In this document: positions 4,199-58,706 of the stretch, piece after piece | Layout: the number at the start of each line of letters is the position of its first letter | Position numbering within the stretch: the first letter of the stretch is position 1 | Virus record (IMG/VR): IMGVR_UViG_3300046532_001253 | Location: 1 to 61,767 of that record | From: a virus | Lineage: Duplodnaviria; Caudoviricetes | Strand: one strand, 5' to 3' | DNA: 61,767 bases | Made by a program: the position numbers and the translations under genes | Notes under the pieces: generated by a model | Seen by the model: the letters and a program-made list of their open reading frames with translations, nothing else | The model's database searches: none | Told to the model about the DNA's origin: nothing

Positions 4199-5493
4199 AT
4201 CTTCTCCCACCAATCTAATACGTCAGGTCGAGTGGATAAGATGTCCTTCATCGTCAGCGACTGAGTTCTAATTTGTTCTAATTTTAAAATACGTTCTTTA
4301 CCTTTACGAAGCCCTGCTTCGTATTGGTCTGGCCATTGCTCAGCGAATGTAGGTCTATCCTTTAACTGTACCAGTACATCATTCATTGCTCCTGTGCTAG
4401 ACTTACTTAATTCGTCTAGCCACGGATGTAATAGTTCACGTGGTAATGCTAAAGGAGATAATATAATGTCAGGACTAAAACTAAAGACTACTTTAGCAAG
4501 TACACCAACACCTAATCTTTCTGCGAGTTCTTGGATCGGTTCGACTTCAAAGAGTCCCGGTAAGGTAAGAGTGAAGTCAATACGAACTTGGCGCGGGTGG
4601 TTGCTGATCTCAATTCCTTTATTGAAGTTTTCAAGCCACTTGTTAAAATCAAGACCTGTTCGAATATACTCTCCAATTCGTCCCGTTCCGTCGATGCTTG
4701 CACATATTTGCCAATCACGTAGCCTAGACAAAATGTCAGTATACAGATTAGTGCCACCATAATCAATGCGACTAAGATTAGTGTTGTATCTTGCGTAAAC
4801 ATTTGGACCATCTCCTAGTTCTATAATGCGTTTCATATACCTCCAATGCTGTTCATACATTAAAGGTTCTCCGCCGACCCAGTACACCTCTTCTACCCGA
4901 TGTTCCTCAACTGCGTCTGAAAATTCTTTTTCAATTTGTGTGGACTGAAAGTCCTCAATTTGTTTTTTAATAGCAGGTTTCATCCAATTGTTCTTTGGAT
5001 CATCCCAGTTAATCATATTATATTTTCTTTGCTCAGCTTCCCAGCTTGATGAAAGCATGTCGCCGCACATACGACATTTAAAGTTGCATAGGTTTGAGAA
5101 TCTGTAATCCCAACTTACAGGTTTTAACGAAGTAGTGCCGTTTGAATCAGTGTTATCCCATATTGACTCATATTTATGACCAAACAATTGATTAAAATAA
5201 CTTCTATATACATCAGTGTTTAATAACTTACTAGTACACACGTCACACTCACTAAGCTCTTCACCTGCCATCATCCGACGTCGAACACTTTTCATATGTT
5301 CGCTATTCCAGTGTTCATCTAATGTTATTGGCGTATATGTTCCTGTGCCAGATTTAGTATCAATATATTGCTCAAAATTTTGTGCAGGCTCACGACTAGC
5401 ACAACACAAACGTCTTTCAGTTTGTGGACTTAAATACGTATGAGTCCACGGTGCCATACACAAATTTTCAGGTTTTTTATCTGGTTTTATCAT
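4195..5493 (-). CDS. Radical SAM protein with N-terminal SPASM/twitch domain
   Basis: CNFKCRMC (CX3CX2C), GGEP, YNTN; N-terminal CMAPW...LCC...ECDVC. Confidence 0.92.
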   Translation of the reverse strand: MIKPDKKPENLCMAPWTHTYLSPQTERRLCCASREPAQNFEQYIDTKSGTGTYTPITLDEHWNSEHMKSVRRRMMAGEELSECDVCTSKLLNTDVYRSYFNQLFGHKYESIWDNTDSNGTTSLKPVSWDYRFSNLCNFKCRMCGDMLSSSWEAEQRKYNMINWDDPKNNWMKPAIKKQIEDFQSTQIEKEFSDAVEEHRVEEVYWVGGEPLMYEQHWRYMKRIIELGDGPNVYARYNTNLSRIDYGGTNLYTDILSRLRDWQICASIDGTGRIGEYIRTGLDFNKWLENFNKGIEISNHPRQVRIDFTLTLPGLFEVEPIQELAERLGVGVLAKVVFSFSPDIILSPLALPRELLHPWLDELSKSSTGAMNDVLVQLKDRPTFAEQWPDQYEAGLRKGKERILKLEQIRTQSLTMKDILSTRPDVLDWWEKI

Positions 5494-5494
5494 A

Positions 5495-6001
5495 TTAAAA
5501 ATTTACATATAAAGATTTTCGAATAACATTGTCGGGAACCTTACCTTTCATGCCGTGTTGTATTGTGTGCGAATTTAATAACATTAGTCCGGTATTTACT
5601 TCATAGTCAACTTCGTACTTGATATCATTTTCGTACCAGTAAGTACCCATTGATTCACTGTTACTTTCTTCTCCTAAGTATAACATAATAATATTACGAA
5701 CACTATCAGGATCATCATGATGCATTGCGTTTTCATACCCAGCATAATCAAACCATATTTCAACAGCTTGCACCTTTTGTTTGTCGATGTCGAGGCTAGA
5801 AAATCTACCTGCTATTTCATTGCGTACAATGTCACGATCAGGCTCTAACCACCACGACTCTCTGTAGCCTCCAAGATGCCATGCTTCAGTAATAGGGTTA
5901 AATTGTGTTGTATGATTAAACAACTTGTTTTTAACACCATTGGGGATATTGTGTTTTAACTTGTATCCGTTTGCGGATATTTGTTGTACTTCACGTATCA
6001 C
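5495..6001 (-). CDS. 2OG-Fe(II) oxygenase-like protein
   Basis: HxD (MHHDD), distal His (IQHG) and RxS (RKSL) in a ~170-aa beta-rich protein. Confidence 0.7.
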   Translation of the reverse strand: MIREVQQISANGYKLKHNIPNGVKNKLFNHTTQFNPITEAWHLGGYRESWWLEPDRDIVRNEIAGRFSSLDIDKQKVQAVEIWFDYAGYENAMHHDDPDSVRNIIMLYLGEESNSESMGTYWYENDIKYEVDYEVNTGLMLLNSHTIQHGMKGKVPDNVIRKSLYVNF

Positions 6002-7211
6002 TGTAACCCATTGCCTCTGCTATTTGTGTATGTGTTTCTAAGAAATTTTCCTTACGATATGCGTCGGTCTGTTTCATTAGTCTAACAAATCGACTGCCGT
6101 CACTAGTTGGACCGTTCTTAATAAACTGTATTAAGTTATCAATCTCAATTTTATCACGCGGAATAAATTCATCTTGTGATAATCTATCCAGTACTAATTT
6201 CTTTGCATCCGATGTCATTTCACCAATATTCTGATGTCGTGGATCATGTAACATATTAAAGTGATGATAATCAAAGTCTTGTGTATTCATCCAATCACAT
6301 AAATCCTTTAGGTAATAGACGTTCTGAATATTTACAGTTAAACAAATCTGCAATTTAATATTAGTATTACGGTTACGTAATTCTCTAAAGCGTTTTATGT
6401 TCTCACATACCTGATCCCATTTTGCACCATAACGTTCATATTCAAATCGATTACCAACGTTATCAATACTAAATGCAATCTCCACATACTTAAATTCTTT
6501 CCACAAATGTACAAATTCTTCAGGATACTTTGTGCCATTTGTATTATAATGTATTTCAATGTTCTTTGCAAAACCGCCATCAACGGCTTGTTGTAATAAT
6601 TGAAAATGTTCTTTGATCATAAACGGTTCGCCGCCGGTAAACTCAAAGTACTTAACGTTAGGGAGTAATTCAATCATATTCTCCCAAAATACTTCAGACT
6701 CACGAGGCCATTTACCATCCTTTAACCATTTATAAGCAATATGGTCTTTAGCATCTCTATTCTTATATTTGCGTATATAATCAATTTCTTCTCTGGCCCA
6801 TTTACTGCTAGACCAAGATCCACATATACGACATTTAAGATTACAAATGTTTCCAAGTTTTAAATCAATAAACCAAAGACTGTCAGGGTTAGTATCTGTA
6901 AAATCTAATAAAGGTCGTTCATGTTTAAAACGCACATCAGTGTTCATGCGTTTACTTGTGCGGCCAGCATCTTCTTCATCCCAACAACGACTACATGTTT
7001 TAGGCTTTAAGCCACTCAAAAATTGCTTGCGTAGATCAATCATGTATTCACTTTTATAGCTATCTTCTAATGTATGTTCTTTAAGTGTATACTTTGACCC
7101 GTCGGGTTTTGTAATCTCATCCATTGCTAAACAGCAAGGTCGAGTAGTGCCCATTGGTGTAGTTTCCATACTAACCCAAGGTAACATACAAATTGTGTTA
7201 GGCAGTGACAT
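5991..7211 (-). CDS. Radical SAM protein with N-terminal SPASM/twitch domain
   Basis: CNLKCRIC, TGGEP, YNTNG; N-terminal CMLPW...PCC...CSRC. Confidence 0.92.
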   Translation of the reverse strand: MSLPNTICMLPWVSMETTPMGTTRPCCLAMDEITKPDGSKYTLKEHTLEDSYKSEYMIDLRKQFLSGLKPKTCSRCWDEEDAGRTSKRMNTDVRFKHERPLLDFTDTNPDSLWFIDLKLGNICNLKCRICGSWSSSKWAREEIDYIRKYKNRDAKDHIAYKWLKDGKWPRESEVFWENMIELLPNVKYFEFTGGEPFMIKEHFQLLQQAVDGGFAKNIEIHYNTNGTKYPEEFVHLWKEFKYVEIAFSIDNVGNRFEYERYGAKWDQVCENIKRFRELRNRNTNIKLQICLTVNIQNVYYLKDLCDWMNTQDFDYHHFNMLHDPRHQNIGEMTSDAKKLVLDRLSQDEFIPRDKIEIDNLIQFIKNGPTSDGSRFVRLMKQTDAYRKENFLETHTQIAEAMGYSDT

Positions 7212-8535
7212 TTTTTAACTCCTGGAATTCAGGGAATGTTGCCCAGAAGTCTTCATTACGAATCTCATCTAACTTCGTTACTTCCTCTTTAAACCGCCCC
7301 CAGTTTTGTTTATGATTGTCCTGACTATTCATAAAATTAATAGCACTTTCAAATCCTGTTGTTGCTCTACGTAATTGATCCTGTGGATCTAACCATTCAA
7401 TGTGCTTACGATACGCCGGCTCAATTACATTACGTTTAAACTCTTCTGGGAAGATATCAATACGATACCAGTCTGGACTCTGACAGATGTTTACATTAAA
7501 ATCCTGTGGCTTAATAAACCCTTTATCAACCCAGTCTCTATGGAAGTCTAATACGTGTAGTACATTCTGACTTGTAACTGTAGCACTAACATAAAAATCA
7601 ACATGTGGTACTTCTGCCATCATGCGTACTCTGTTATCTTCAGTTTGTTTCCAATTTGCACCCTTACGTATTAGTTCTGCTTGCGGACCCATACCATCAA
7701 GACTAGCACCTACGTTTACTGTTTCAAACTTGTTCCAATAATCAAATACATGCTTTTTCTTATAACGCATTTCTGAGAAGTTAGTATTGTACACTAAACG
7801 TACATCAGTCTTACCTAAGTCAATTAACCGATCAAGTAAGTAGTAATGCTCTTTCATGATTAGAGGTTCGCCACCAGCAAAGTACACTTGTTCTAAATGC
7901 GGAATATGCTCTTCCATCTGAGCTAACATTCCATCTTCGTCGCCTGTGGTGTACTCTACTCGTGCCATGTCTCTTTTCAACACATCAGGCACCTTTCCGT
8001 ATAGTTTTACGTGGTCGTTGAACCAATTACTGCTAAAAATCGGGCCACAACTACGGCATCTAAAGTTACATAGGTTACTGAAGCGTATATCCCAATATCG
8101 GAGTTTAAACTCAGGATGTTCGCCATCTTCGTGCGTTTGATCTACTTCAGGGATTAAATGCCCGTAGTTACGATTGGCATCATTACGCATTGAAAAGAAG
8201 CCATTTTGCTCTTGCTCGTAGCACTTAGTACATTCTTTACAAGGTTTATCTTCAAGCATATTTTTACGCATAGTTTTATACGCATCCTGATTCCAAACCT
8301 CTGTCATTGTGTTTTTACGAAGATCGCCAATTGGATGCCAGTAGTCGCCTAAACAACACGGATAAACCCTACCATCTGGAAATGCATGCATATGCACCCA
8401 CGGCATCATACAAAAGTTATCTTCTTTGACCAACCTATCATATTGCTGTTTAGTTAATTCTTCTGGTTTAACAAAATGTGGAGTTCTTTCGTTATAGTCA
8501 TATTTTTCATAAAAGTCTTTTTTACTTGAGTCCAT
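7198..8535 (-). CDS. Radical SAM protein with N-terminal SPASM/twitch domain
   Basis: CNFRCRSC, AGGEP; N-terminal CMMPW...GRVYPCC...CKECTKC. Confidence 0.93.
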   Translation of the reverse strand: MDSSKKDFYEKYDYNERTPHFVKPEELTKQQYDRLVKEDNFCMMPWVHMHAFPDGRVYPCCLGDYWHPIGDLRKNTMTEVWNQDAYKTMRKNMLEDKPCKECTKCYEQEQNGFFSMRNDANRNYGHLIPEVDQTHEDGEHPEFKLRYWDIRFSNLCNFRCRSCGPIFSSNWFNDHVKLYGKVPDVLKRDMARVEYTTGDEDGMLAQMEEHIPHLEQVYFAGGEPLIMKEHYYLLDRLIDLGKTDVRLVYNTNFSEMRYKKKHVFDYWNKFETVNVGASLDGMGPQAELIRKGANWKQTEDNRVRMMAEVPHVDFYVSATVTSQNVLHVLDFHRDWVDKGFIKPQDFNVNICQSPDWYRIDIFPEEFKRNVIEPAYRKHIEWLDPQDQLRRATTGFESAINFMNSQDNHKQNWGRFKEEVTKLDEIRNEDFWATFPEFQELKNVTA

Positions 8536-9877
8536 TATACCACTCCGCTAATTGGGGAAATGTAGAAGCAAAATCTTTGTGTCTACGGTTGTCGTATTGT
8601 GCATAAAACTGTTTAAAATCATTATGCAGTTTTGGCATTTCGAATGAATCGCTATGTGGAGTTTTTACAACATCTAAGTAATCTATTAGACGTTGCACAT
8701 GATTACGTTCATGTTCGTGTAGCACTTTGCTATTCTTATGACGTTCAATCCAATCCTGCAATCTATTCTTGTGTTTCGTTCGAATCTCATCGGGCAATAC
8801 TAATGCACTTTGGAAACTTGGAAATCGTAAAATGTTTAATGTAAAATTAGGATAGTCTCTACCGTATTGGTTCTTGTAACCAACCATAAGATCTAGAAAT
8901 TCCGGAAGGCTTTCTAAACACAATGCATTAATAGTACACATGCAATGTAATCCACGTAGCTTACCGCCACGCATCAACAATTCCATATTTGATGTCCACT
9001 GGTTCCAGTCTAATCCGTCACGTATGTATTCTGCATGCGGCTCAAGGCTTTCGTTGCTAGTATACAGGTCTAACTCAACGTGTTCGCTTGCTTCTAATAG
9101 CCGTTCTACTTTATCGTTATCAAATCCTAAATTACTATTAATTGCTAAACGTGTCTTAGACTTTCCTTTGTTTATTTTAAACCAATCTAATAGATCCCAG
9201 GTATGTCCGCTCATTAATGGCTCGCCGCCTGTAATACGTAGCTCTTGAAGTGTTTCGTGTAAGTCACTTTCCCACCATTTAAAAAATGCATCTACGTATG
9301 GATTTGATTCGTTATACTTAAACAAACTGGCTTCTTTATGTTCGTGCGTAAAGTGATTGCGACCGTCGCTAACTAGATCCGTATAAGCACCGTTCTTCTT
9401 AATATCTTTAGCCCATGTTGTTGAAAACGCTGGGTTACAATAACTACATGCAAACTGACAAGTTCTATCAAATGCAATTTCAAGTGTACGCAAATTAACA
9501 TCGGCATCAGGAGGAGTATCGTATGCATTTTGTAATTCTTTATCTGAATAGATAACGCTCTTATAAACTCTATCGCTAATGTTGTCCCTGCCAATGTCTT
9601 CAATCTTCCAGCAATACTCACAGCCCTTAGGTCGTACACCGTCGAGCATATCAGCACGGTCTTGTTTTTTCTGTGAACTATTATGCAATGCTTTAGGATT
9701 AAACTTAACTTCTTCAGCGTCTATTTTATGTGCTGGTGGATGATGACAACTTGTAGTCATCCCCGATCCAAGCCATATAGTAGCATTATACCATTTAGCT
9801 CCACAGAAGCTATCACTTTTAGGATCAAGCACTCTTCTTCTAAACGCCAAATCAGTTTCATTTATTAATTTAGGCAA
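8522..9877 (-). CDS. Radical SAM protein with His-substituted twitch domain
   Basis: CQFACSYC, TGGEP; N-terminal CGAKW...SCHHP...CEYCW. Confidence 0.92.
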   Translation of the reverse strand: MPKLINETDLAFRRRVLDPKSDSFCGAKWYNATIWLGSGMTTSCHHPPAHKIDAEEVKFNPKALHNSSQKKQDRADMLDGVRPKGCEYCWKIEDIGRDNISDRVYKSVIYSDKELQNAYDTPPDADVNLRTLEIAFDRTCQFACSYCNPAFSTTWAKDIKKNGAYTDLVSDGRNHFTHEHKEASLFKYNESNPYVDAFFKWWESDLHETLQELRITGGEPLMSGHTWDLLDWFKINKGKSKTRLAINSNLGFDNDKVERLLEASEHVELDLYTSNESLEPHAEYIRDGLDWNQWTSNMELLMRGGKLRGLHCMCTINALCLESLPEFLDLMVGYKNQYGRDYPNFTLNILRFPSFQSALVLPDEIRTKHKNRLQDWIERHKNSKVLHEHERNHVQRLIDYLDVVKTPHSDSFEMPKLHNDFKQFYAQYDNRRHKDFASTFPQLAEWYNGLK

Positions 9878-10961
9878 AGTGTTTCTCCATTTCAGATATA
9901 TAGTTTACTATCTTTGTGCCGCGATGTCTATCTCTAATGGTAATCATATCTAAGAATTCTTTCCAGTTTTCTTCATTAGAGTTATCCAGTGTATTGATAA
10001 TTCCTTCTAAACCATTTTGTGCTTCGTAATCAACAGCACGAAGTCTGTCTTGTGCAAGTTGAGCTAATTCCTTTGGCAAGCACACAGGCGCTAGGTAATG
10101 AGGCTTTGTTAATATATCAAACTGCACAAAAAGCTCTTCCTGTTTAGCCCACTCTAATAATCTATCAATGTATAATACATTTAAATTTTGCACGACTGTG
10201 TTTACAAAAATATTAGCATCAGGTATTTGACGCATCAACTCTATATTCTTAGTTATAATATTCCATTTGCTTGGATATCTTATGTAATGGTTAAGTTCTG
10301 CATATCCGTCAATACTTAAACACATCTTAATATCGTGTGCTGACAATACATCAACCCAACTTTGATCAAATTTAGTTCCGTTAGTTGCAATCATTATTTC
10401 TTTGCGTTGTGTTAATGATGAAAGAATATCACGAACCCAAGGCAACATAAACGGTTCGCCTCCCCTTAGGATAAAGCTATCACTGTGTTCCATTATTTCA
10501 AGTATTTTGTAATTGTCTTTTTCATTCCAATTGTATTTTTTTTGATCCCATACCTTGCCAAACAGTTTGTTTTCTTCAACTAAAAATTGGCTACTAGACT
10601 GCGGGTTACACATCAAGCATTTCAAGTTACATACATTTGATAACTGTATTTCCCAATCTAATGGTTGTTCTGTTTGTTCTGTTATGTCACTCCAACGTTC
10701 ATTGCTGTACTGCCGAAAACTTTTTGATCCTTGTTCTTCTTGTTTATAGCAACGAACACATTCATCACTATGTTCATTGTTCTTGATACGCTTTCTTAGA
10801 TCATTGAGATAATTGCTATTCCACCATTCGTCAACAGAGTGCGTTTTCATATTAAAATCTGTTGTTACAAAACTACGACAACAAGGCATAAAACGTCCTT
10901 GGGTGTCTACCAGACTATGCATAAACGGACGCACACAAAATTTATCGTTATCTTTGAGCAT
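9870..10961 (-). CDS. Radical SAM protein with N-terminal SPASM/twitch domain
   Basis: CNLKCLMC, RGGEP, ATNG; N-terminal CVRPF...MPCC...CVRC. Confidence 0.92.
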   Translation of the reverse strand: MLKDNDKFCVRPFMHSLVDTQGRFMPCCRSFVTTDFNMKTHSVDEWWNSNYLNDLRKRIKNNEHSDECVRCYKQEEQGSKSFRQYSNERWSDITEQTEQPLDWEIQLSNVCNLKCLMCNPQSSSQFLVEENKLFGKVWDQKKYNWNEKDNYKILEIMEHSDSFILRGGEPFMLPWVRDILSSLTQRKEIMIATNGTKFDQSWVDVLSAHDIKMCLSIDGYAELNHYIRYPSKWNIITKNIELMRQIPDANIFVNTVVQNLNVLYIDRLLEWAKQEELFVQFDILTKPHYLAPVCLPKELAQLAQDRLRAVDYEAQNGLEGIINTLDNSNEENWKEFLDMITIRDRHRGTKIVNYISEMEKHFA

Positions 10962-12354
10962 AATATCTACCTTGTTTCCAAAACTCTTCCATTTCTGGAA
11001 ATGTCTTTAAGAAATCTGTGCCTCTACGTTTATCATGTTCAGTAAAAAACCTATAAAAGTCTGCTCTATTTTTCTGTAAGTATTCTGGTGATAATTCTGA
11101 TCCTTTACGCATCCAAGTAATATCTCTACGCATGCGTTGTACTTCGTAATCTTTAAATCCATGAAATGGATCATCTTTAGTTTCTAAATTCTGTTCCATC
11201 CAGTCAGCAACATCTGTTAATTTATCAGCATAAGGCCAAGGAAGTATCTGCAAACTCTGCCAGGCAGGTTGTCGTAGTAAAGGAGTATCAAACCATACAC
11301 GTTGATATGTTGTACTAAATGATTTACGTAAATCAAGTATCCATTCTAGTTGCTTCCTAATACCAGATACACTTAAATTATTCATTGTAATAATAAATGT
11401 TAAGCTATTACGTTCCGGAACTTCAGTTAGGTACCTATGAACATTGTTTGCCATGCGAGGCCAACTAAGTCCGTGTCTAATGTATTCAGCATGAGCAGGA
11501 ATGCCGGTATCTAAACTAACATATTGCATAAAATGCTCAATTTGAGACTTGCATAATTTCTTTACGTAACCTATATATTTTTCAAACAGTTTATCTTCTA
11601 CACTAAAGTTACTAGTTACATTTAAGTGTAACTCAGGATTTGGCAATGCTAATACATAATCAAACACACGATAGGTATTATTATCCATTAATGGCTCGCC
11701 TCCGGTCATTCGAAAATGCTTTAGGTGTGGATATAATGAGGGCCACCATTCCCAAAACGCATCTACGTATGGATTTTCTTCTCTGTGCGGAATTGGTCTA
11801 TTACGACCAGTAAAATGCTCAGGTGCATTATGCGGAGTACTAGTAGGATATGCTCCGGCCTTTTTAATCTCTTTCATCCAGGTAGTGCTAAACTGCGGAC
11901 TACAATATGAACAAGCTAAGTTACACGCATTGTTAAAATTAACCTCAACATAACTAGGCTTCCAATCTTCGTCGCCTGAGCTATTCTTAATTGCTTCGTA
12001 ATCACTAGCCGCCCAAGGTTCGCCGCTTCGGTAATGTCTATCACTTAGGTTACCCGAATCTTCGATGTTCCAACAATACTGACATTCTGATGGTCGCTCA
12101 CCTTTGAGCATTATTTTACGTTGCTCTTTTTTATGCTCTGTGTTATGTAATGCATCAGGATTAATCTTTACTGCATCGGCATCAATCTTATGCAATGGAG
12201 GATGGTAACAACTGTTGTTTAGACCAGTAGGCAAATGAAAACTTACTTGTTTCCATTTAGCCAGACACAATCCTTTACCAAGGTTGTCTTTCATAAATTC
12301 TGCACTAGCCATAAACTTACTTTTATTGCCTACGGACTCATCACCTTTATTCAT
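10948..12354 (-). CDS. Radical SAM protein with His-substituted twitch domain
   Basis: CNLACSYC, TGGEP; N-terminal CLAKW...SCYHP...CQYCW; clear paralog of 8522-9877. Confidence 0.92.
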   Translation of the reverse strand: MNKGDESVGNKSKFMASAEFMKDNLGKGLCLAKWKQVSFHLPTGLNNSCYHPPLHKIDADAVKINPDALHNTEHKKEQRKIMLKGERPSECQYCWNIEDSGNLSDRHYRSGEPWAASDYEAIKNSSGDEDWKPSYVEVNFNNACNLACSYCSPQFSTTWMKEIKKAGAYPTSTPHNAPEHFTGRNRPIPHREENPYVDAFWEWWPSLYPHLKHFRMTGGEPLMDNNTYRVFDYVLALPNPELHLNVTSNFSVEDKLFEKYIGYVKKLCKSQIEHFMQYVSLDTGIPAHAEYIRHGLSWPRMANNVHRYLTEVPERNSLTFIITMNNLSVSGIRKQLEWILDLRKSFSTTYQRVWFDTPLLRQPAWQSLQILPWPYADKLTDVADWMEQNLETKDDPFHGFKDYEVQRMRRDITWMRKGSELSPEYLQKNRADFYRFFTEHDKRRGTDFLKTFPEMEEFWKQGRYYAQR

Positions 12355-22311: not shown

Positions 22312-24126
22312 TTACGAATTCAGTCTGACGATAGCTTCAACCATTCCTAAACCGTCCGATGTCTTGTCTTCTAAACTACGTCCGATTACATTTAAGTTTG
22401 TAATCTCAGACCTCGTAGCGCCTTTTGCTATTCCGCTACCAGCACTAACTAAACGTTGTCCTTTTTTAATTTTTCCTACTACTTTAACTGGAACTCTTCC
22501 ACTAATAGCAACAGCAGGGTGAGTTATATCCGTTCCTGCTCCGGCATTCATTAAGTGAGCTGGGCGTGTACTAATTACACCAAACACTTCTTCACTTCCT
22601 TCTTCAACACTAGCAGTAATTTCTGCTACTCCACCTAATGCAACAACTGTTCCAGGACCATATACTTGATCGGCATGAAAGCGTTCTGCAACGTCAGCGT
22701 ATTGTGCTGAAGTACTAGTTCCGTTAAATGTGGTTGCATATACATTAGCAAATGTATTAGCAGAAGAACCTATATTTAGTACTCCGGTGTTAGTTGGTAT
22801 TATGTTGCCTGACAATGCAGTAGTTCCAGCTAATGGAATTGCATCTGCTGGTTTACCCGACAAATCCCCATATGCACCTGACGTAGCTACTGTAGATAAA
22901 GCTGGTTTATTAACAAGATCAGTGTAGTCTCCTGTTGTCGCTACACTAGCAAAACTTGGTTTACTTGTAATGTCAGCCCATGCATTTGATCCTGCTGGGC
23001 CAGCAACTCCTTGTACGCCCTGTGGACCATCTGGTCCTTCTGGTCCAGTTAATCCTTGTGGTCCAGTTGGTCCTTGTATTCCTGTATTACCAATTGGGCC
23101 TTGCACTCCTTGTGGACCTTGTGGTCCTGTATTACCAATTGTTCCTTGCACTCCTTGAGAACCCTGTGGGCCAGTTGGTCCTTGTGGACCTTGTGGTCCT
23201 GTATTACCAGTTGTACCCTGTGGGCCAGTTGGTCCTGTATTACCAATTACACCTTGTGGTCCTTGGATGTTACCAACGTTCTCCCATACACTACCGTTCC
23301 ATACATACAAAGTACCGCTAATTAAATAACCATCGCCTAGTGAACCACTTGCTGGCAAAGCGGCTTCATTTGCTACACTACCAAGAATTGTAATACTTGT
23401 TCCGTTTGATCCTGCGGCTCCAGTGTCTCCTTGCGGGCCTGTTGCTCCTTGCGGGCCAGTGTCTCCTGTTACTCCTTGAATTCCTCGTAGTCCTTGAACA
23501 CCAATCGCTCCTGCTGGGCCAGCGACACCTTGTGGTCCGCGTTCGCCAGTTGCTCCTTGCACTCCTGCTGGGCCAGTTGGTCCTTGTACTTCTCCAACAT
23601 TAGTCCAACGCTCTGAATCCCAAATATGTAAATTGCCGTCTACTAAGTAAGCATCCCCTGATGTTTGACCAGTAGTTGGCAGTCCAGCTATAGTTGCTTT
23701 GGTACCCGTAATATATACACTTGCAAGTCTTGACAGATCGGTTGGTCCAATTAATGTGAAACTTGTGCCGTTCCACATGTAAAACTCGTTCTCATCAGTA
23801 TTGAACCATTGATCACCAATATTGGTGTTTAGCGGTTTGCCAGATGCACCAGCTACTGTTAAATTACTAATTGGTTTAAACACACTACCGTTATAATACT
23901 TTAACGATCCAACTGAAGTATCAAACCACAGTTGTCCTGTTAATGCTGAACTAGGTCTTGTTGTGTTTGCAAAGTTTTCTAATAGTTTAATAAAGTTTTC
24001 TTGTTGGAGTTCGCCAAATCCGATATAATTACGACCAACCAACGATAGCCCGGTACTAGTATCTAGTGATCCATCGGGCAGGTTAACTAATATATCACCA
24101 TTGGTTCTGTTTATAACGTATGACAT
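22312..24126 (-). CDS. Collagen-like tail fibre
   Basis: Two Gly-X-Y blocks (GPQ/GPT/GNT); shares N- and C-terminal modules with 17321-18865. Confidence 0.85.
22990..23590 (-). repeat. Gly-X-Y collagen-coding 9-nt periodic repeats (two blocks)
   Basis: Repeated ccttgtggacc / ggtcctgtattacca units; boundaries approximate. Confidence 0.85.
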
Positions 24127-52179: not shown

Positions 52180-53949
52180 ATGTTTAAAATAAAAGACTTG
52201 ACAGTTAAGAACTTTATGAGTGTGGGTAATGCTACCCAAGCGGTAAACTTTAATCGCCAAGATCTCACGTTGGTATTAGGTGAAAACTTAGACTTAGGTG
52301 GTGACGATAGCGGAGCAAGGAACGGTACAGGCAAGACAACTATTCTTAATGCACTAAGTTATGCATTATACGGCGAAGCGTTAACTAAGATTCGAAAAGA
52401 TAATCTAATTAATAAAACCAACAGCAAAGGTATGATGGTTACCCTTGACTTTGCCATTGGTGGTAATGATTATCGAGTTGAACGTGGTCGTAAGCCAAAC
52501 ACATTTAAGTTCTATGTAAATGCACAAGAACAAGAAATGACCGACGAGAGTCAAGGCGACAGCCGAGAAACCCAAGCCGAAGTTGAACGTTTGTTGCGTA
52601 TGAGTCACGAGATGTTTAAGCATGTTGTAGCACTAAACACGTACACGGAACCTTTTTTAAGTTTACGAGCTAACGATCAACGAGCACTAATTGAGCAGTT
52701 GCTAGGTATTACTATACTAAGTGATAAAGCTGAAAAACTTAAAGATCTGCAACGGGCCACTAAAGAAGCAATCACCGAAGAAGAATATCGTATTAAAGCA
52801 GTTACTGACGCAAATGTTAGAATTGAACAACAAATTGACAGTTTGCGTAAACGTCAACGACTTTGGTATGCACAACACGACGAAACAGTAACAAAACTAA
52901 CTACAGGAATAGCAGATCTATCTAAAATTGACATTGATAACGAACTAGTAATGCATAACGAGTTAGACAAATGGAATGAAAAAGAAAAAACATATAACGA
53001 AGCTGAACGTTGGTTAGCAAGTGCATGGAATGATACGCAAAAACAACAAAACTTAATAGATAGAATTGATAAAGAAATTGCATTACTTGAAGAACATAAA
53101 TGTCACTCCTGCGGGCAAGACATTCATGATGAAAAGCAAGACGCACTTTTAAAAAGCAAAGAAAAAAGTAAGAAAACAGCAAACGATGCGGTTATTGCTA
53201 ACAGTCGAACAGAAGAAGAACATGCTGAAGTAATGTCTAAACATAAAAATGTAGGAGACAAACCAAGTACATTCTACCCTGCTCGCGACGGTGCAATTGA
53301 ACACAAGAACAATTTAGCAAATTTAGAAACACAACTAGAAAACAAAGCAAAAGAGCAAGATCCATACGGCGAACAAGTTGATGAAATGGAAACTGCTGGT
53401 ATTGAACAAATTAGTTACGATACACTCAATGAACTAGTGAATATTAAAGAACACCAAGAGTTCTTAATGAAATTGCTAACAAACAAAGACAGTTTTATTA
53501 GAAAACGAATTATTGATCAGAATTTAAGTTTCTTAAATGCCAGACTGCATGTGTACTTAGACAAAATTGGACTTCCGCATCAAGTAAAATTCTTAAATGA
53601 CTTAAATGTAGAGATTACTGAATTAGGTCGTGATCTAGATTTTGATAACCTAAGTCGTGGTGAACGCAATCGTTTAATTTTAAGTTTAAGTTGGGCATTC
53701 AGAGACGTATGGGAAAGTTTATATCATCCAATTAACTTATTGTTCATTGACGAACTTGTTGATAGCGGCATGGATAGCTCGGGTGTTGAAAACGCACTTA
53801 GTATACTTAAAAAAATGAGTCGTGAAAGTAACAGAAGTGTGTGGTTAGTATCACATAAAGATGAACTAGCTGGTCGTGTTAATAATACACTGCATGTTGT
53901 AAAAGAAAACGGATTCACTAGTTATAACACGGACGTTGATATTGTTTAG
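52180..53949 (+). CDS. Recombination ATPase (gp46; SbcC/Rad50-like)
   Basis: Walker A GTGKTT, zinc hook CHSCG, signature LSRGE, Walker B LLFIDE and H-loop VSH. Confidence 0.95.
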   Translation: MFKIKDLTVKNFMSVGNATQAVNFNRQDLTLVLGENLDLGGDDSGARNGTGKTTILNALSYALYGEALTKIRKDNLINKTNSKGMMVTLDFAIGGNDYRVERGRKPNTFKFYVNAQEQEMTDESQGDSRETQAEVERLLRMSHEMFKHVVALNTYTEPFLSLRANDQRALIEQLLGITILSDKAEKLKDLQRATKEAITEEEYRIKAVTDANVRIEQQIDSLRKRQRLWYAQHDETVTKLTTGIADLSKIDIDNELVMHNELDKWNEKEKTYNEAERWLASAWNDTQKQQNLIDRIDKEIALLEEHKCHSCGQDIHDEKQDALLKSKEKSKKTANDAVIANSRTEEEHAEVMSKHKNVGDKPSTFYPARDGAIEHKNNLANLETQLENKAKEQDPYGEQVDEMETAGIEQISYDTLNELVNIKEHQEFLMKLLTNKDSFIRKRIIDQNLSFLNARLHVYLDKIGLPHQVKFLNDLNVEITELGRDLDFDNLSRGERNRLILSLSWAFRDVWESLYHPINLLFIDELVDSGMDSSGVENALSILKKMSRESNRSVWLVSHKDELAGRVNNTLHVVKENGFTSYNTDVDIV

Positions 53950-54952
53950 TTATTCTGAATTGCATATTGAGATCAGTAGTAGATGTGTACTTAAATGTCC
54001 TCGGTGTCCTCGAACTGAACTTTCTGAAAAATTACGAGACGTATTAAACACTGACTACAGTCTTAGCGAGTTTAGTGCTATCTTTACTCCTGAGATCCTA
54101 ATAGACGTCAAACGTATACTATTTTGCGGGGATAAAGGGGATCCTATATACACTCGTGAATTTTTAGAAATAATAAAATACATTAAGCAAACTAAGCAGT
54201 CCATCCGCATTAGTATTACTACTAACGGAAGCTATAAATCAGAAGTTTGGTGGACTGAGCTTGGCGAGTTACTAGAACCACATGATACCATTACGTTTAG
54301 CGTTGATGGGTGGGATCAGAAAAGCAACAACCTATATCGTATCAATAATAATTTTGAAAGTATTCTTCTTGGCATAGCTACACTAAGCAAACTGCCGGAC
54401 ACCCAAAGACCATTTATTAAATGGAGTACAGTATCGTTTAGGTTTAATCAAAACAACGAACAACGTATTTTAGATTTAATTAAGGTCCAAGGTTTAAAGG
54501 TTGATATATTCCAATTAGTAAAAAGTACTAAGATTGGAAGCATTGATCAAAACTATCTGGACAAAAATGGTATGGACGAACTAGAGCCTATAAGTATTAA
54601 TAACGCACAACCATTAAAAGTATACGATAAAAGTGAGAGTACTCGGCTCTCAAAGAGGCGCGAAGACATTCCGTGGGAACGAGTTATTCCAGTTGGAAAC
54701 CCATGGCAGGGTTGCTTACGTGGAGAACAGATACCTTTTATTGATGTTGACGGGAAATTTTATCCGTGTGCTTGGTTTAATAGTGGTTACATGCCAAATG
54801 ATTTTGTAGAAAAGTATGCAGACGAAATTAATATTCGAAAGAACGGACTACTTGCAGTGATTAACCACCCGTGTTGGGGAGAACTTGAATCTCGTTGGTT
54901 ACTAGCGCCGTTAGAAATATGTAAATTAAAGTGTTATAAACATGCCCAATAA
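53936..54952 (+). CDS. Radical SAM protein with C-terminal SPASM-like domain
   Basis: CVLKCPRC near the N-terminus; CGDKGDP; TTNGS; C-terminal DGKFYPC...ICKLKC. Confidence 0.88.
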   Translation: MILFSYSELHIEISSRCVLKCPRCPRTELSEKLRDVLNTDYSLSEFSAIFTPEILIDVKRILFCGDKGDPIYTREFLEIIKYIKQTKQSIRISITTNGSYKSEVWWTELGELLEPHDTITFSVDGWDQKSNNLYRINNNFESILLGIATLSKLPDTQRPFIKWSTVSFRFNQNNEQRILDLIKVQGLKVDIFQLVKSTKIGSIDQNYLDKNGMDELEPISINNAQPLKVYDKSESTRLSKRREDIPWERVIPVGNPWQGCLRGEQIPFIDVDGKFYPCAWFNSGYMPNDFVEKYADEINIRKNGLLAVINHPCWGELESRWLLAPLEICKLKCYKHAQ

Positions 54953-56237
54953 AGATATATTTTGTAATATTCCATGGTTCGAATTGAACATTAATAATGA
55001 TGGCAGTTTTGATCTATGCGGGTGTCAGAATGATAAAATCATTAACACCGAGCTTGGTGAAGAATGGAATATTAAGAAAATGACCATCGACGAGTATTGG
55101 AATAGCTCACGCATGCAAGAGAAACGTGCTATTAAGTTAGGCGATACAGTTGACCCAATGTGTAAAATGTGTCAAATGAAAGATGCGGCTGGGTATACTA
55201 GTGCTAGACAAAAAGAAAATTTAAAAAGTGTTATCTTTCAAGATGCATTTGATCGTAGCTTCAAACAAAGCCCACATTTAGCTCAGTTTACAGAAGTAAC
55301 ACAAACTAAAATACACAGTTTGCATTTAAATATTGGTAATACGTGCAACTTAGCTTGTAAATTCTGTGCTCCTGAATCTAGCTCACGTATTGCTAGTTTT
55401 CAGAAGAGTGTTAATTGGATTCCGCAGACATGGAAAATGCAATCGTGGCTTAAAGACCCAATTGCATATCAAAATTTCCGTGATTGGTTTGACGAAAATT
55501 ACAAACATATTCATGTAATACACTTAATTGGCGGAGAGCCAGCGTTAATTGACGAGTTTGCAGATCTAATTGATTTGTTCACAGAGCATAAAATGTCATG
55601 GCTTAACCTAAGTTTTACTACTAACGCAACATACCCATACACTGAGTATGCTAAACAATTTAAGAAGTTTAAACGTGTAGAGATAGGTATTTCAATTGAA
55701 ACAGCCGACGAAAGTAATAATTATATTCGCTCAGGCAGTGTAATTGGAGAGATTTTATCTAATGTAGATACTATGCAAAAGAAAATGCCTTTTGTTGATT
55801 TTGCATTCAGAACAGTACCAAACTTGCTTAGTGTTGGGCGTTACGACACCCTATTAAAAGAAGGGTTAAAACGACGTATTCCAATTGATGCAAGTTACCC
55901 ACACAGACCGAGTTGGATGCTCTCAGAACTATTACCCGACGGACATAAAGGTCTTGCTATTAAAAAGTTACAAACATTTGCTGACAGCATCAACTTAACT
56001 GATAAGAAATTTAATAACACTAAGAACGCAAACAACGTTGAATTGTCACTCAAACGGGAAGCAGAAGCGTTAATACGACACCTGCAGAAGCCAGTATTAG
56101 ACGAAGACGAAGCATTTAGGGGCCGTGCAGAAGCCGCTAGTCGTATTGCTACACAAGATAGATATCATGGTATTAGTATTTTTGATGCTATTCCAGAGTA
56201 CAACGGATGGTTAAAAGAGCATGGATACAGTAATTAA
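54942..56237 (+). CDS. Radical SAM protein with N-terminal SPASM/twitch domain
   Basis: CNIPW...LCGC...CKMC; CNLACKFC; IGGEP. Confidence 0.9.
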   Translation: MPNKDIFCNIPWFELNINNDGSFDLCGCQNDKIINTELGEEWNIKKMTIDEYWNSSRMQEKRAIKLGDTVDPMCKMCQMKDAAGYTSARQKENLKSVIFQDAFDRSFKQSPHLAQFTEVTQTKIHSLHLNIGNTCNLACKFCAPESSSRIASFQKSVNWIPQTWKMQSWLKDPIAYQNFRDWFDENYKHIHVIHLIGGEPALIDEFADLIDLFTEHKMSWLNLSFTTNATYPYTEYAKQFKKFKRVEIGISIETADESNNYIRSGSVIGEILSNVDTMQKKMPFVDFAFRTVPNLLSVGRYDTLLKEGLKRRIPIDASYPHRPSWMLSELLPDGHKGLAIKKLQTFADSINLTDKKFNNTKNANNVELSLKREAEALIRHLQKPVLDEDEAFRGRAEAASRIATQDRYHGISIFDAIPEYNGWLKEHGYSN

Positions 56238-56665: not shown

Positions 56666-57106
56666 ATGTCGTGGACCTACAAAGATCAACTAGTAACAGA
56701 TTTACCAGAAGATTGCGTAGGTTTTGTTTACTTAATTACTAATACCAACAGCGACCGCAAATACATTGGTAAAAAACTAGCTAAGTTTGCTAGGACAAGG
56801 TATCGGGTAGTAAAACTAAAAAACGGTACTAAGAAGCGTAAGAAGATAAAAGACAAAGTGGACAGCGACTGGCAAGAATATTATGGCTCATCAAACGAAT
56901 TAAACAAAGACATCGAAGCACTCGGCAAAGACTGCTTCACACGTGAAATACTTTACTATTGTTACAGCAAGGCAGAGTGTAGTTACGTTGAAGCAAGAGA
57001 ACAATTTAGGCACAAAGTATTAGAATCTGATAACTGGTATAACGGACTTATCCGTGTAAGAGTTAACAGAAGCCAATACATTTTAAACGAAAACAATCAA
57101 GATTAA
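56666..57106 (+). CDS. GIY-YIG family endonuclease (stand-alone)
   Basis: GFVYLITN...KYIGKK...YYGSS...REIL...E...N. Confidence 0.85.
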   Translation: MSWTYKDQLVTDLPEDCVGFVYLITNTNSDRKYIGKKLAKFARTRYRVVKLKNGTKKRKKIKDKVDSDWQEYYGSSNELNKDIEALGKDCFTREILYYCYSKAECSYVEAREQFRHKVLESDNWYNGLIRVRVNRSQYILNENNQD

Positions 57107-57583
57107 GAGCTCTGTTTGGTCGAGGTAGCTCGACCCGTCAAGATACTGCAAGCGAAGGTTTGCCGTTGGGTGTGATGTGCTCAAGGAAAATGCTAACTTA
57201 AGGCTCAAATGGTCGTGGCTCTGTGAAAAAGATACAACCACAATTGAATACATGCTGATTGGATGTGTGTAGGAGATTCCGTTGACACGTGAATGCTATA
57301 GTAAGGGGTACAGATCAACCGCCTCTGCTGTACTATATACAATACATTAACGCATTTAATGTACTGTATAAAGTACAAATCTATTCAAACCAATTGGCTG
57401 ATGATACTCGGATGATGCTATCTCAGACACTGTTCACCCGGCAACGGGTGAATTGTGGCTAATTCATCTGGATGATACTAGAGTATATTAATATATACTA
57501 TATTCATATTAGAAGTAAAAATTAAAGAAGTAAAAAAAATATTTACGAACGACAGTGAAGTAAATAGATCACGTAAGTGATCT
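57107..57583 (+). ncRNA. Candidate large structured ncRNA or structured origin region
   Basis: No ORF of note; at least 8 hairpins, including GNRA tetraloops (GCAA at 57441, GTAA near 57573), G-U pairs on the + strand and a long-range TTGAATA/TATTCAA helix. Confidence 0.5.
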
Positions 57584-57822
57584 TAAAAGAATGGCATCTT
57601 AGTAGTTTTAGTTGTTTCTAAATTACCATCTATGATTTTACCAATTAGTTTACGTTCTGATTGATCAAGATTAAATGCTTCGATGTAGGAAAGACCTCCA
57701 CGCATATACCAACACATTCGTAACAGTTCTTCTTTTATTGCCTCCACCTCTCTATCAAACTTCTTTAAGAAGTCAATGATATCCTGTTCTGAGCTTAACT
57801 GGAGGAGGCTTCTGCGAAAAAA
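57583..57822 (-). CDS. -1 frame extension of the gp26-like gene (tail chaperone GT-like); not in ORF track
   Basis: Open frame from slippery T TTT TTC: FFRRSLLQLSSEQDIIDFLKKFDREVEAIKEELLRMCWYMRGGLSYIEAFNLDQSERKLIGKIIDGNLETTKTTKMPFF*. Confidence 0.7.
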   Translation of the reverse strand, partial: FFRRSLLQLSSEQDIIDFLKKFDREVEAIKEELLRMCWYMRGGLSYIEAFNLDQSERKLIGKIIDGNLETTKTTKMPFF

Positions 57823-58706
57823 CTTGTATAATCAAACTCTAATGGAGTTTCCCATGCATGTTCGCAACTGTTACATTTAAGTTTTAAATCTGTAGGAGAT
57901 GCTTCTTTTGCTATTGCAACGATCTTATCTTGTACTGAACGTAATGCACCTGCGTCTGCTTGCTGGTAGAAATCTCTAATATGCGTTTTCTCATTGACTA
58001 GTGTGCCGTCTGGCATTTCAATATGTGAAGTGCTTTCAGTTACGTTGTCAAACCCAAGGTTCATAATACGAGTAAAACTTTCATTTACTTGTTTTAATTT
58101 GTCTTCTTCAGGCATTGTTAAATCAGCAACAACAGAACTAATACGCTCTTCTTGGAATCTTAGTTGATTAAGCCTTGAGATAGCATCATAATACTGAGGC
58201 TGGATATATATTTTTAATCCTAGGACTTCAACCGGTGAGGCATAATCAGGTAAACGTAGCAATCCAAGTTTTTCTGGTAACGGTACAGCATACGTATTTT
58301 CTTCATTGCATTCCGGACAATCAACTTTGACATCCATGCCTTCGCCAAAACTTGCAATACGAATTGCAATTAATAACGCATCTGTGTCAATACTTGGCAT
58401 TCCCCACGCATCTCGTACTGCTGGACAGCAACTTTCAATTACAGAAACTACTGATTGTCCGTTCATTAATCCGTCTGGTGTGCGTAGTGCAATTTCATCT
58501 TTAGCTGTCATTGCATAAACTGGAACTTCTCCAGTGGCTGGGAGTTCTAGTGCGCCTTGTTTCCAGTATTTGCCTCCGCTTGGCAAAGATAAATGAATCT
58601 TTGGTTGCCTAAAGTGGGCAGTTAGCGGATTAAATGCTGGCTCAGGCCCAGGATTTGCTTGTGTAACGCCTGGCATAGGAACACTCTGCATATTTTGATT
58701 TTCCAT
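57795..58706 (-). CDS. Baseplate hub / tail assembly chaperone (gp26-like)
   Basis: LSLPSGG...VYAMTAKDE...DALLIAIRIASFGE...CPEC...CNSC...FDYTSFF. Confidence 0.8.
   Translation of the reverse strand: MENQNMQSVPMPGVTQANPGPEPAFNPLTAHFRQPKIHLSLPSGGKYWKQGALELPATGEVPVYAMTAKDEIALRTPDGLMNGQSVVSVIESCCPAVRDAWGMPSIDTDALLIAIRIASFGEGMDVKVDCPECNEENTYAVPLPEKLGLLRLPDYASPVEVLGLKIYIQPQYYDAISRLNQLRFQEERISSVVADLTMPEEDKLKQVNESFTRIMNLGFDNVTESTSHIEMPDGTLVNEKTHIRDFYQQADAGALRSVQDKIVAIAKEASPTDLKLKCNSCEHAWETPLEFDYTSFFAEASSS
57816..57822 (-). other. -1 ribosomal frameshift slippery heptamer U UUU UUC
   Basis: In-frame AGT TTT TTC a few codons before the stop; the -1 frame stays open to 57583. Confidence 0.65.

Follow-up and report, generated by a model that had tools for sequence, protein, structure and literature searches.

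The gap at positions 57107-57582 of a viral genome fragment (IMG/VR record IMGVR_UViG_3300046532_001253, positions 1-61,767; this whole 61,767-nt stretch is called the window below) is a single non-coding RNA gene on the + strand, ∼470 nt in length, heavily paired and pseudoknotted. It is bounded by the stop codon of an open reading frame (ORF) for a stand-alone GIY-YIG protein and by the stop codon of a convergent 54-aa ORF (Table 1). The gene belongs to a modular RNA superfamily of mobile elements, carried by uncultured marine and fresh-water jumbo myoviruses and by islands in small Burkholderiales genomes, in which one of several interchangeable 5′ domains is the Rfam motif RF01718 (Polynucleobacter-1) and the most universal part is a 3′ module with a pair of identical 7-nt boxes. 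The GIY-YIG nuclease is the usual neighbour of the RNA and no more, and the RNA stands independent of it. Taken together, we read the element as a family of folded RNA genes, independent of the nuclease, that would act in trans through two identical, re-programmable boxes; we give this combined reading an even chance of being right.

A Folded RNA on the Plus Strand

The gap had been singled out as a structured element in an earlier analysis made from the DNA letters without database searches (the sequence-only reading), and comparison with shuffled sequences bears this out: each of 100 shuffles folds less well than 57107-57582, whichever strand is taken (z scores of -4.3 for + and -5.5 for -). 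We assign the RNA to the + strand, as the sequence-only reading had done, because of invariant G-U/U-G pairs (e.g., alignment columns 176/207, 296/303, 356/368, and 485/503) and because of GNRA-type loops in the 3′ hairpin T1. The extent of 57107-57480 originally proposed is too short. The copies in phages and in bacteria alike keep the sequence of T1 with its + strand GNRA-type loops, so the RNA fills the whole gap up to the convergent gene's stop codon and reaches ∼57582. The transcript itself probably starts at a conserved UGUUUGG and ends after hairpins T1 and T2, judging from the sequences of the family. We note that the inner motif of T1, GA / GC-GNRA-GC / GAA, is conserved in the window (57541-57565) and in all relatives (UGAGCGNNAGCGAAA).

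Covariation supports the fold well beyond the window. RNAalifold, given 56 sequences, returns 45 pairs, of which 35 show compensatory changes, and a structure of 84 pairs in 22 helices, including four pseudoknots, was assembled from mutual information (56 sequences). In the latter, 94.0% of cells are paired as against 75.5% in shuffles (0 of 500 reach it), and the covariation score is 0.504, compared with 0.184 for shuffled alignments and 0.07-0.09 when the partners are slid by 1-3 columns; these scores are somewhat inflated because the structure was derived from the same alignment, though the margin is still large. The sequence-only reading had named covariation among homologs as the check on its proposal, and the relatives collected here provide it, with 69 of the 84 proposed pairs changing on both sides, the four pseudoknots included. 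The pairs of the window fit the covarying helices of the family, and PK1, P10, P11 with GGUAC.G...ACCGCC, helix A, the twin-box module, and T1 can all be aligned in it.

The individual hairpins drawn earlier fared unevenly. Those at 57118-35 and 57433-52 are conserved and covarying, and the second is the helix we call P12. The hairpin at 57148-63 is partly supported and varies among homologs, and the 49-nt stem at 57329-77 is real in the window and is a lineage-specific insertion, absent or different in relatives. The TTGGGTG/TGCTCAA hairpin (57166-84) is neither supported nor conserved. A long-range TTGAATA(57244)/TATTCAA(57382) helix clashes with the covarying P10 (57298-301/57381-84) and is not kept in the closest relative, L082. 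The 5′ strand of P12 covaries also with an upstream AAAGA, a possible alternative pairing.

The sequence-only reading could not match the element to tRNA, tmRNA, RNase P, or intron cores, and the searches agree. ARAGORN calls no tRNA or tmRNA gene in the window or in 10 related loci, and no covariance model of Rfam 15, including those for group I/II introns, RNase P, 6S, GOLLD, ROOL, and HEARO, matches the window at the gathering threshold. Below threshold (E ≤ 10, positions 56900-57800), four miRNA-like matches fall on the AT-rich 49-nt hairpin (E 0.057-7.8), and a fifth, to the pestivirus 3′-UTR model RF04324 (E 6.4), lies at 57558-57732. Like tmRNA (300-450 nt, sometimes phage-encoded), the family RNA is rich in pseudoknots; it differs in having no ARAGORN call, no Rfam match, no tRNA-like end, and no tag frame. 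GOLLD and ROOL are large ornate orphan RNAs of phages and prophages, several hundred nt in length, with many helices and pseudoknots. Our family is likewise large, pseudoknotted, carried by phages and mobile elements, and of unknown function, but neither the window nor the relatives scanned match either model, and there are no tRNA neighbours. To the best of our knowledge, no pair of identical re-programmable boxes has been reported for GOLLD or ROOL.

Public sequencing data offer a first look at transcription. Six RNA-library runs from five studies contain a quarter to a third of the sampled words, and contigs from RNA libraries, at depths of 2-14, cover the GIY-YIG and 54-aa genes as well as 56998-57204 (which spans the GIY-YIG stop codon) and 57356-57506. 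No weight attaches to the stretch left uncovered, 57215-57337, or to the joints missing from these contigs, and contigs cannot reveal rare isoforms. We take the contigs as a weak hint of transcription in the region, nothing more.

A Modular Family That Includes RF01718

Used alone as a query for blastn and nhmmer, the gap sequence retrieves relatives, among them loci in which identity of the baseplate protein drops to ∼40%. A family nhmmer profile built from 43 distinct copies, the window sequence among them, matches 104 of 160 protein-anchored viral loci (80 per flanking protein). A 14-base motif from the most conserved loop, GGTACCGGNNNACCGCC, was used to fetch further loci: among the viral loci (at least 120 fetched), 91 of the 120 matches listed are true copies by the profile, and among bacterial genome contigs, 0 of the 121 matches listed are. 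Uncultured giant phages of oceans and lakes commonly carry family members. In 50,697 records of cultured phages, blastn finds no match to the gap or to the type-2 RNAs described below, and at E ≤ 10 it returns only 4 chance-level matches of 26-31 nt. The profile likewise has no match at the Melnitz or Phosso loci; near the baseplate homolog of Phosso (L404), where the profile is negative, an unannotated 1-kb gap (6293-7306) separates the genes for RNase HI and a Holliday-junction resolvase.

The sequence-only reading supposed that the RNA might be undescribed. This holds for the window, which has no Rfam family match, and does not hold for its type-2 relatives, which contain RF01718 as their 5′ domain. 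The full RF01718 model (positions 1-141 of 141; cutoff 37 bits) is found at 59-119 bits in 13 of 13 type-2 loci tested. It is found in none of nine type-1 loci (L022, L024, L032, L029, L042, L061, L082, L112, and L160), none of four loci of other types (L018, L051, L085, and L091), and not in the divergent L319; in the window it is absent at the gathering threshold and, over 56900-57800, at E ≤ 10. A single-sequence nhmmer search with the window nevertheless reaches RF01718-bearing loci (L002, 3e-13; L004, 7e-8; L016, 7e-7). These RNAs are modular in architecture. RF01718 spans only the 5′ third of the type-2 RNA, and the family joins interchangeable 5′ scaffolds to a shared pseudoknotted core (PK1, P10, P11, and helix A), the twin-box module, and T1. 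The scaffolds are type 1 (the window), type 2 (RF01718, the commonest), type 3 (L018, L051, and loci like them), and another that is found in the second copy carried by genome G004.

RF01718 also matches 3 of 151 sampled Burkholderiales genomes (1.8-1.9 Mb). All three copies are full-length, with the core, identical boxes (AGCGAAA or GGCGAAA), and T1, and one lies near a tyrosine-integrase fragment. In the table of Weinberg et al. 2010 (PMC2864571), Polynucleobacter-1 appears as a likely RNA, likely cis-regulatory ("y"), from Burkholderiales and fresh water or estuary, and the RF01718 seed alignment in supplement file 4 of that paper spans only ∼135-170 nt. The motif is an orphan of unknown function, known from Polynucleobacter and from fresh-water and estuary sequences. 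Downstream of it, its type-2 carriers have the core, twin boxes, and T1 that are also present in the RNA of the window, whereas the type-1 5′ domain of the window has no match to it; and while that table lists it as a cis-regulatory element of Burkholderiales, most copies found here lie in jumbo-phage contigs between convergent genes. In the available text of the literature that names the motif, we found no printed description of the core, the pseudoknots, or the twin boxes. What entered Rfam as a 141-nt orphan motif of 2010 and a possible leader is one exchangeable 5′ domain of an RNA of ∼450-480 nt, which jumbo phages commonly carry and which also occurs in Polynucleobacter-like genomes. The seed alignment includes the cultivable bacterium Polynucleobacter asymbioticus (NC_009379.1), which makes the question testable.

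Two members deserve separate mention. Genome G004 (302 kb, the record of L356) holds two family RNAs, at ∼165750-166110 and 275682-276121, that differ from each other both in 5′ scaffold and in box (GCATGAA and AGATGAA). L287 (∼300-420) is a natural variant that has neither arm 1 nor P12 and in which P10 and helix A have lost their 3′ strands, so that one box is left; it may be a deletion or an assembly artefact.

Twin Boxes and the Partner They May Address

The twin-box module consists of arm 1 (RUGAC, 6-9 nt, CUC, box), a linker, the hairpin P12, and arm 2 (RUGAC, 6 nt, UCU, box). The two boxes have the same sequence in all but one of 144 unique cores (143), and 14 box sequences of the form [AG][GCA]AT[GA]A[TAG] occur among these cores. 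Divergent members also have their box twice in every case (ACATGAA, AGTTGAA, TGGTAAT, ATGAAGA, GGTTAAT(GTAA), GGTGAAT, GCCAAAT, GCATGAA, AGCGAAA, and GGCGAAA), and at least 24 variants occur between RNAs. There are two near-misses, L024, in which the last position differs, and L079, in which 6 of 7 positions match. At the four variable box positions (56 sequences), mutual information equals entropy, and identity between the boxes is 100%. On a tree built without the box columns the boxes change ∼55 times, a count inflated by tree error, and both switch together each time. Identity stops sharply at the box edges, where the flanking triplets are fixed and different (CUC versus UCU); a second identity site is the R of RUGAC, 91% identical between the arms. 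The distance from RUG to the box in arm 2 is 15 nt in about 137 of 144 cores.

The boxes lie 47-64 nt apart around a stable hairpin in the family and 60 nt apart in the window, where the sequence-only reading had noticed GATGAT three times; two of these are the conserved twin boxes GGATGAT (57410-16 and 57470-76), and the third (57400) is specific to the window. A back-reference regular expression finds the module in 185 of 195 loci positive by the family hidden Markov model (HMM); reversed sequence and a 242-kb bacterial control both yield none. The window shows no enrichment of GGATGAT (8 found, 4.8 expected), and where a third copy of the box turns up sporadically, it does not covary. It is an unusual evolutionary signal that twin boxes remain identical through dozens of changes of sequence. 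Such identity covariation marks addressing or template-switching mechanisms, and we know of none for an RNA of this family. As a side observation, the boxes of the bacterial copies (A/GGCGAAA) resemble the AGCGAAA of the T1 motif.

In the mechanism that we propose, the folded body would hold two ∼25-nt arms single-stranded on either side of P12, with each arm presenting a pyrimidine triplet (CUC or UCU) and then the same 7-nt address box. The RNA would act in trans, its identical boxes pairing with two copies of one complementary sequence, and its role might be that of a bivalent guide, decoy, or sponge. Box complements within -700 to +500 nt number 6, as against 12.9 ± 3.1 in permuted controls; there is no excess and, if anything, a depletion, which fits boxes that are kept unpaired. 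We modestly favour pairing to an external partner over a self-contained mechanism with two parties only.

Several points weigh against this proposal. A third party would require three-way co-evolution ∼55 times, which is hard, and a two-party mechanism explains the fast joint turnover of the boxes more simply. No columns of the alignment covary with the boxes in a Watson-Crick manner in cis, as judged by mutual information. In the near-complete genomes G001-G004 and the window, the only orthologous sites with a box complement are the RNA loci themselves, and G001 has no inverted-repeat or palindromic self target. The evidence for expression is weak, consisting of low-depth RNA-library contigs that lie mostly over the GIY-YIG gene and could reflect DNA carry-over, and the ends of the RNA were placed by inference rather than mapped. 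The inclusion of the window in the family HMM and the inflation of the structure scores, both given above, belong here as well. Separately, an exact 14-nt complement of arm 1 of G001 lies in that phage at G001:C1:66604-66616, inside a 366-aa ORF. As a target it was set aside, the ORF being missing from 5 other RNA-bearing genomes, and the match is probably due to chance.

The two-party mechanism takes the form of a copy-choice or hop element, which we consider possible but not probable. Here the boxes would be matched take-off and landing sites, a nascent strand from box 1 re-pairing at box 2, whether through template switching by an RNA or DNA polymerase or through an RNA-templated product, so that the P12 unit is skipped or duplicated and no external partner is needed. 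Matched-site hopping is known from the translational bypass of T4 gene 60, with its 50-nt gap, and from coronavirus TRS template switching. The likeness is plain: two identical short sequences ∼50 nt apart with a hairpin between them, of which the identity and not the sequence is conserved. Conservation of identity alone, with box sequences that drift freely (∼55 joint changes, at least 24 variants), the 47-64 nt spacing around a stable hairpin, the failure to find a partner in cis or in the phage genomes examined, and the variant L287, without arm 1 and P12, all speak for such an element. However, the junction of L287 is not at the boxes, and no joint product was seen, though only contigs were examined and these are blind to rare isoforms. 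Hopping also leaves the second identity site (RUGAC, 91%) and the elaborate conserved body unexplained.

The ribosomal version of hopping fails. In contrast to T4 gene 60, where an ORF runs into the take-off codon in a conserved frame, no reading frame enters box 1. A reading of the boxes as codon, URA stop at box positions 3-5, and +4 base, with an RUG start 15 nt upstream, is rejected: in arm 1 the start lies 15, 16, or 17 nt from the box, stops occur in frame, and the L091 box has no stop codon. Other known motifs were tried and rejected. Because the box varies, inspection by eye was enough to drop CsrA-type GGA sites, k-turn or C/D boxes, and a hammerhead core; anticodon-loop pairing was dropped because position 37 would be a pyrimidine. 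CRISPR repeats are identical over ∼23-37 nt and flank a variable spacer. A CRISPR mini-array does not describe the module, in which identity covers only 7 nt and RUGAC, each box has its own fixed flanking triplet, and a conserved covarying hairpin takes the place of the "spacer".

Returning to an external partner, the twin boxes could be programmable guide segments, two identical addresses of 7 nt (up to 11 nt) that bring an effector or the RNA itself onto two equal half-sites, an idea we consider unlikely. As candidate targets one may think of a DNA site that is palindromic or repeated, or of an RNA present in two copies. The IS110 bridge RNA and the omega RNA of TnpB/IscB are structured scaffolds beside a nuclease gene, with short variable segments flanking a hairpin; such systems go obligately with a cognate effector, and their targets covary with the guide. 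The family RNA resembles them in its position beside a nuclease gene and in short segments that flank a hairpin and change freely between elements, but here the segments are identical rather than different, and the nuclease neighbour is dispensable. None of the six neighbouring ORFs tested has an IS110, TnpB, or IscB domain, and no DNA target covarying with the boxes was found in the four phage genomes examined. If the idea is correct, the box would set a specificity that diversifies rapidly between competing elements, and RNA-addressed systems would gain a new class alongside the omega and bridge RNAs.

Neighbouring Genes and the Features of the Window

The sequence-only reading offered the GIY-YIG nuclease as a partner of the RNA, in a ribonucleoprotein (RNP) or a mobile unit. 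In its full form, the RNA would guide or regulate the nuclease or travel with it as a homing cassette. The association is a frequent one: of 104 RNA-positive loci, 97 have a match to the nuclease, which in most cases ends a few nt from the RNA or overlaps the RNA 5′ end, often with its stop codon inside, and the adjacency holds across RNA types 1, 2, and 3. The nuclease is also better conserved across loci (51-93% identity) than the baseplate neighbour (29-67%), one RNA-library contig (56998-57204) runs across its stop codon, and short programmable twin boxes resemble guide segments. Each partner is nevertheless found without the other. A RusA-like resolvase gene takes the place upstream of the RNA in L022, L024, and L035, and another gene does so in L011 and L015; G004 (85% complete) has two RNAs and no GIY-YIG match, and none of the three RNA-bearing bacterial genomes has one. 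Conversely, among 24 distinct GIY-YIG loci without a profile match, 18 run straight into a protein gene and 6 hold divergent twin-box RNAs, and the complete 162-kb genome G007 has the nuclease and lacks the type-1/2 core motif. Homologs of the nuclease in Melnitz and T4-like cyanophages (39-49% identity) have no family RNA beside them. The partnership is therefore not obligate, we regard an RNP or homing unit as very unlikely, and annotations that make the RNA a partner of the adjacent nuclease should be avoided.

GIY-YIG homing endonucleases combine the catalytic domain with a DNA-binding domain and are distributed sporadically. The GIY-YIG protein of the window contains the catalytic domain (PF19835), has only 146 aa, and shows no detectable DNA-binding domain or meaningful match among solved structures. 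PHROG 447, which it matches over its full length, is labelled "NAD synthetase", as are GenBank cyanophage records; it seems that a small family of GIY-YIG nucleases was mis-annotated and that the label then spread. Tandem arrays of the TTAGGCA(C/T)A type, 3 to 7 copies long, lie directly upstream of type-1 RNAs (L022:5661-5720 (-) and G004:275601-275700). Their position suggests that TAGGCA(C/T)A arrays may be the RNA's own promoter or operator. Upstream of its RNA the window has a single copy, inside the GIY-YIG gene (Table 1), and over its whole length it is not enriched in TAGGCAYA (4 found, 4.7 expected); it also lacks 9 nt that are present in L082 at the GIY-YIG/RNA junction.

We give little credence to the proposal that the element acts in cis, as a 3′ UTR, as a terminator or insulator between convergent operons, or as the 5′ leader of a downstream gene. 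It does lie exactly between convergent genes, and on the - strand T1/T2 and a T-run sit where the convergent operon should terminate, so that they could serve as its terminator. In addition, the 3 bacterial copies have a same-strand ORF starting 60-170 nt downstream, and the "y" in the table of Weinberg et al. 2010 (PMC2864571) marks the motif as cis-regulatory. Yet there is nothing downstream on the + strand in phages, the flanking genes differ between loci on both sides, and ∼470 nt with four pseudoknots, near-invariant loops, and twin boxes far exceed what termination needs. A purely DNA-level site is highly improbable. In such a site the fold would be secondary, and the boxes would serve as the identical crossover cores for site-specific recombination, a replication origin, or packaging. 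An identical 7-bp core with conserved but different arms is what recombination needs, RusA-like and gp46-like replication/recombination genes adjoin some loci, and an integrase fragment lies near a bacterial copy, but an RNA is indicated by the G-U pairs, which are specific to one strand, and by the compensatory changes seen in 69 of 84 pairs, direct repeats 47-64 bp apart would only delete P12, and no recombinase is consistently linked.

The coordinates of the RNA and its neighbours are collected in Table 1. Helix positions in the window come from a 16-sequence type-1 alignment and family mapping; the alignment of type 1 with type 2 is imperfect upstream of PK1. P9 and helix A were placed by direct complementarity, where the automatic mapping was off by 1-2 nt. 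The near-invariant GGUAC.G...ACCGCC falls in the P10/P11 region.

Table 1. RNA Gene, Structural Parts, and Neighbouring Genes in the Window
Feature	Position	Strand	Evidence or remark
GIY-YIG stand-alone protein, 146 aa	56666-57106	+	frequent upstream neighbour of the RNA; PF19835, E 8e-33; PHROG 447 full length, E 6e-37
TAGGCACA, single copy of array motif, inside GIY-YIG gene	57007-57014	+	candidate promoter or operator
Whole RNA gene, type 1 member	57113-57582	+	conservation and covariation across homologs
Hairpin H1, GGUCGAG/CUCGACC	57118-57135	+	7 pairs, 16 unique type-1 sequences; GC/GU/AU and GC/UA exchanges; no unpaired cells
Helix H2	57136-57177 (57136-39/57174-77)	+	encloses H3; 2-4 pair types per pair, no unpaired cells
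Variable hairpin H3	57144-51/57160-67	+	1-5 unpaired cells per pair
Small hairpin H4	57192-94/57202-04	+	conserved loop AACUUAA; RNAalifold on type-1 alignment
Hairpin H5	57215-18/57238-41 plus 57222-24/57234-36	+	RNAalifold on type-1 alignment; compensatory changes
Hairpin P9	57248-57268	+	6 pairs, all changing on both sides at family level
Pseudoknot helix A, P9 loop AUUGG with CCAAU	57258-62/57390-94	+	6 family-level pairs, all changing on both sides
Pseudoknot PK1, GUUGA with UCAAC in P11 loop	57281-57285/57315-19	+	5 pairs, 100% paired in 56 sequences, 4 compensatory
Helix P10	57298-57384 (57298-301/57381-84)	+	encloses P11 and inserted hairpin; 4 pairs, all changing on both sides, 96% paired
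Helix P11, loop UACAGAUCAACCG	57304-09/57321-26	+	97% paired
AT-rich 49-nt hairpin	57329-57377	+	lineage insertion; relatives have none or short hairpins; sole source of miRNA-like Rfam matches
Arm 1: UUGGC..., CUC (57407-09), box 1 GGAUGAU (57410-16)	57394-57416	+	identity covariation with box 2
P12, between boxes	57432-57453	+	8 bp, GCAA loop; 94% paired, compensatory changes
Arm 2: GUGGC..., UCU (57467-69), box 2 GGAUGAU (57470-76)	57455-57476	+	identical to box 1
3′ hairpin T1	57541-46/57560-65, inner 57549-50/57555-56	+	6 + 2 pairs, all compensatory; conserved UGAGCGNNAGCGAAA
3′ hairpin T2	57567-57582	+	called terminator-like on - strand
Convergent 54-aa ORF and baseplate-hub-like gene	57583-57747 and 57795-58706	-	right-hand syntenic neighbours; Pfam PF12322, E 6e-14

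CheckV puts the completeness of the window at 18%, which corresponds to a whole genome near 340 kb. The nearest cultured relatives of its baseplate-hub-like protein, at ∼30% identity, are from Sinorhizobium phage Phosso and ∼350-kb PBECO4/Rak2-like jumbo phages. PADLOC assigns the neighbours of the RNA to no defence family, apart from a weak homing-endonuclease match. Near-identical DNA is present in seawater and marine sequencing runs, including three studies besides the possible source (studies P2, P11, and P12). Upstream of the GIY-YIG gene lie two adjacent radical SAM/SPASM-domain genes (53936-56237), and repeat families in the window suggest further paralogs of these elsewhere (5063-12000). 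A long run of 9-nt-periodic repeats at 22990-23595 encodes collagen-like Gly-X-Y on the - strand and is probably part of a fibre protein.

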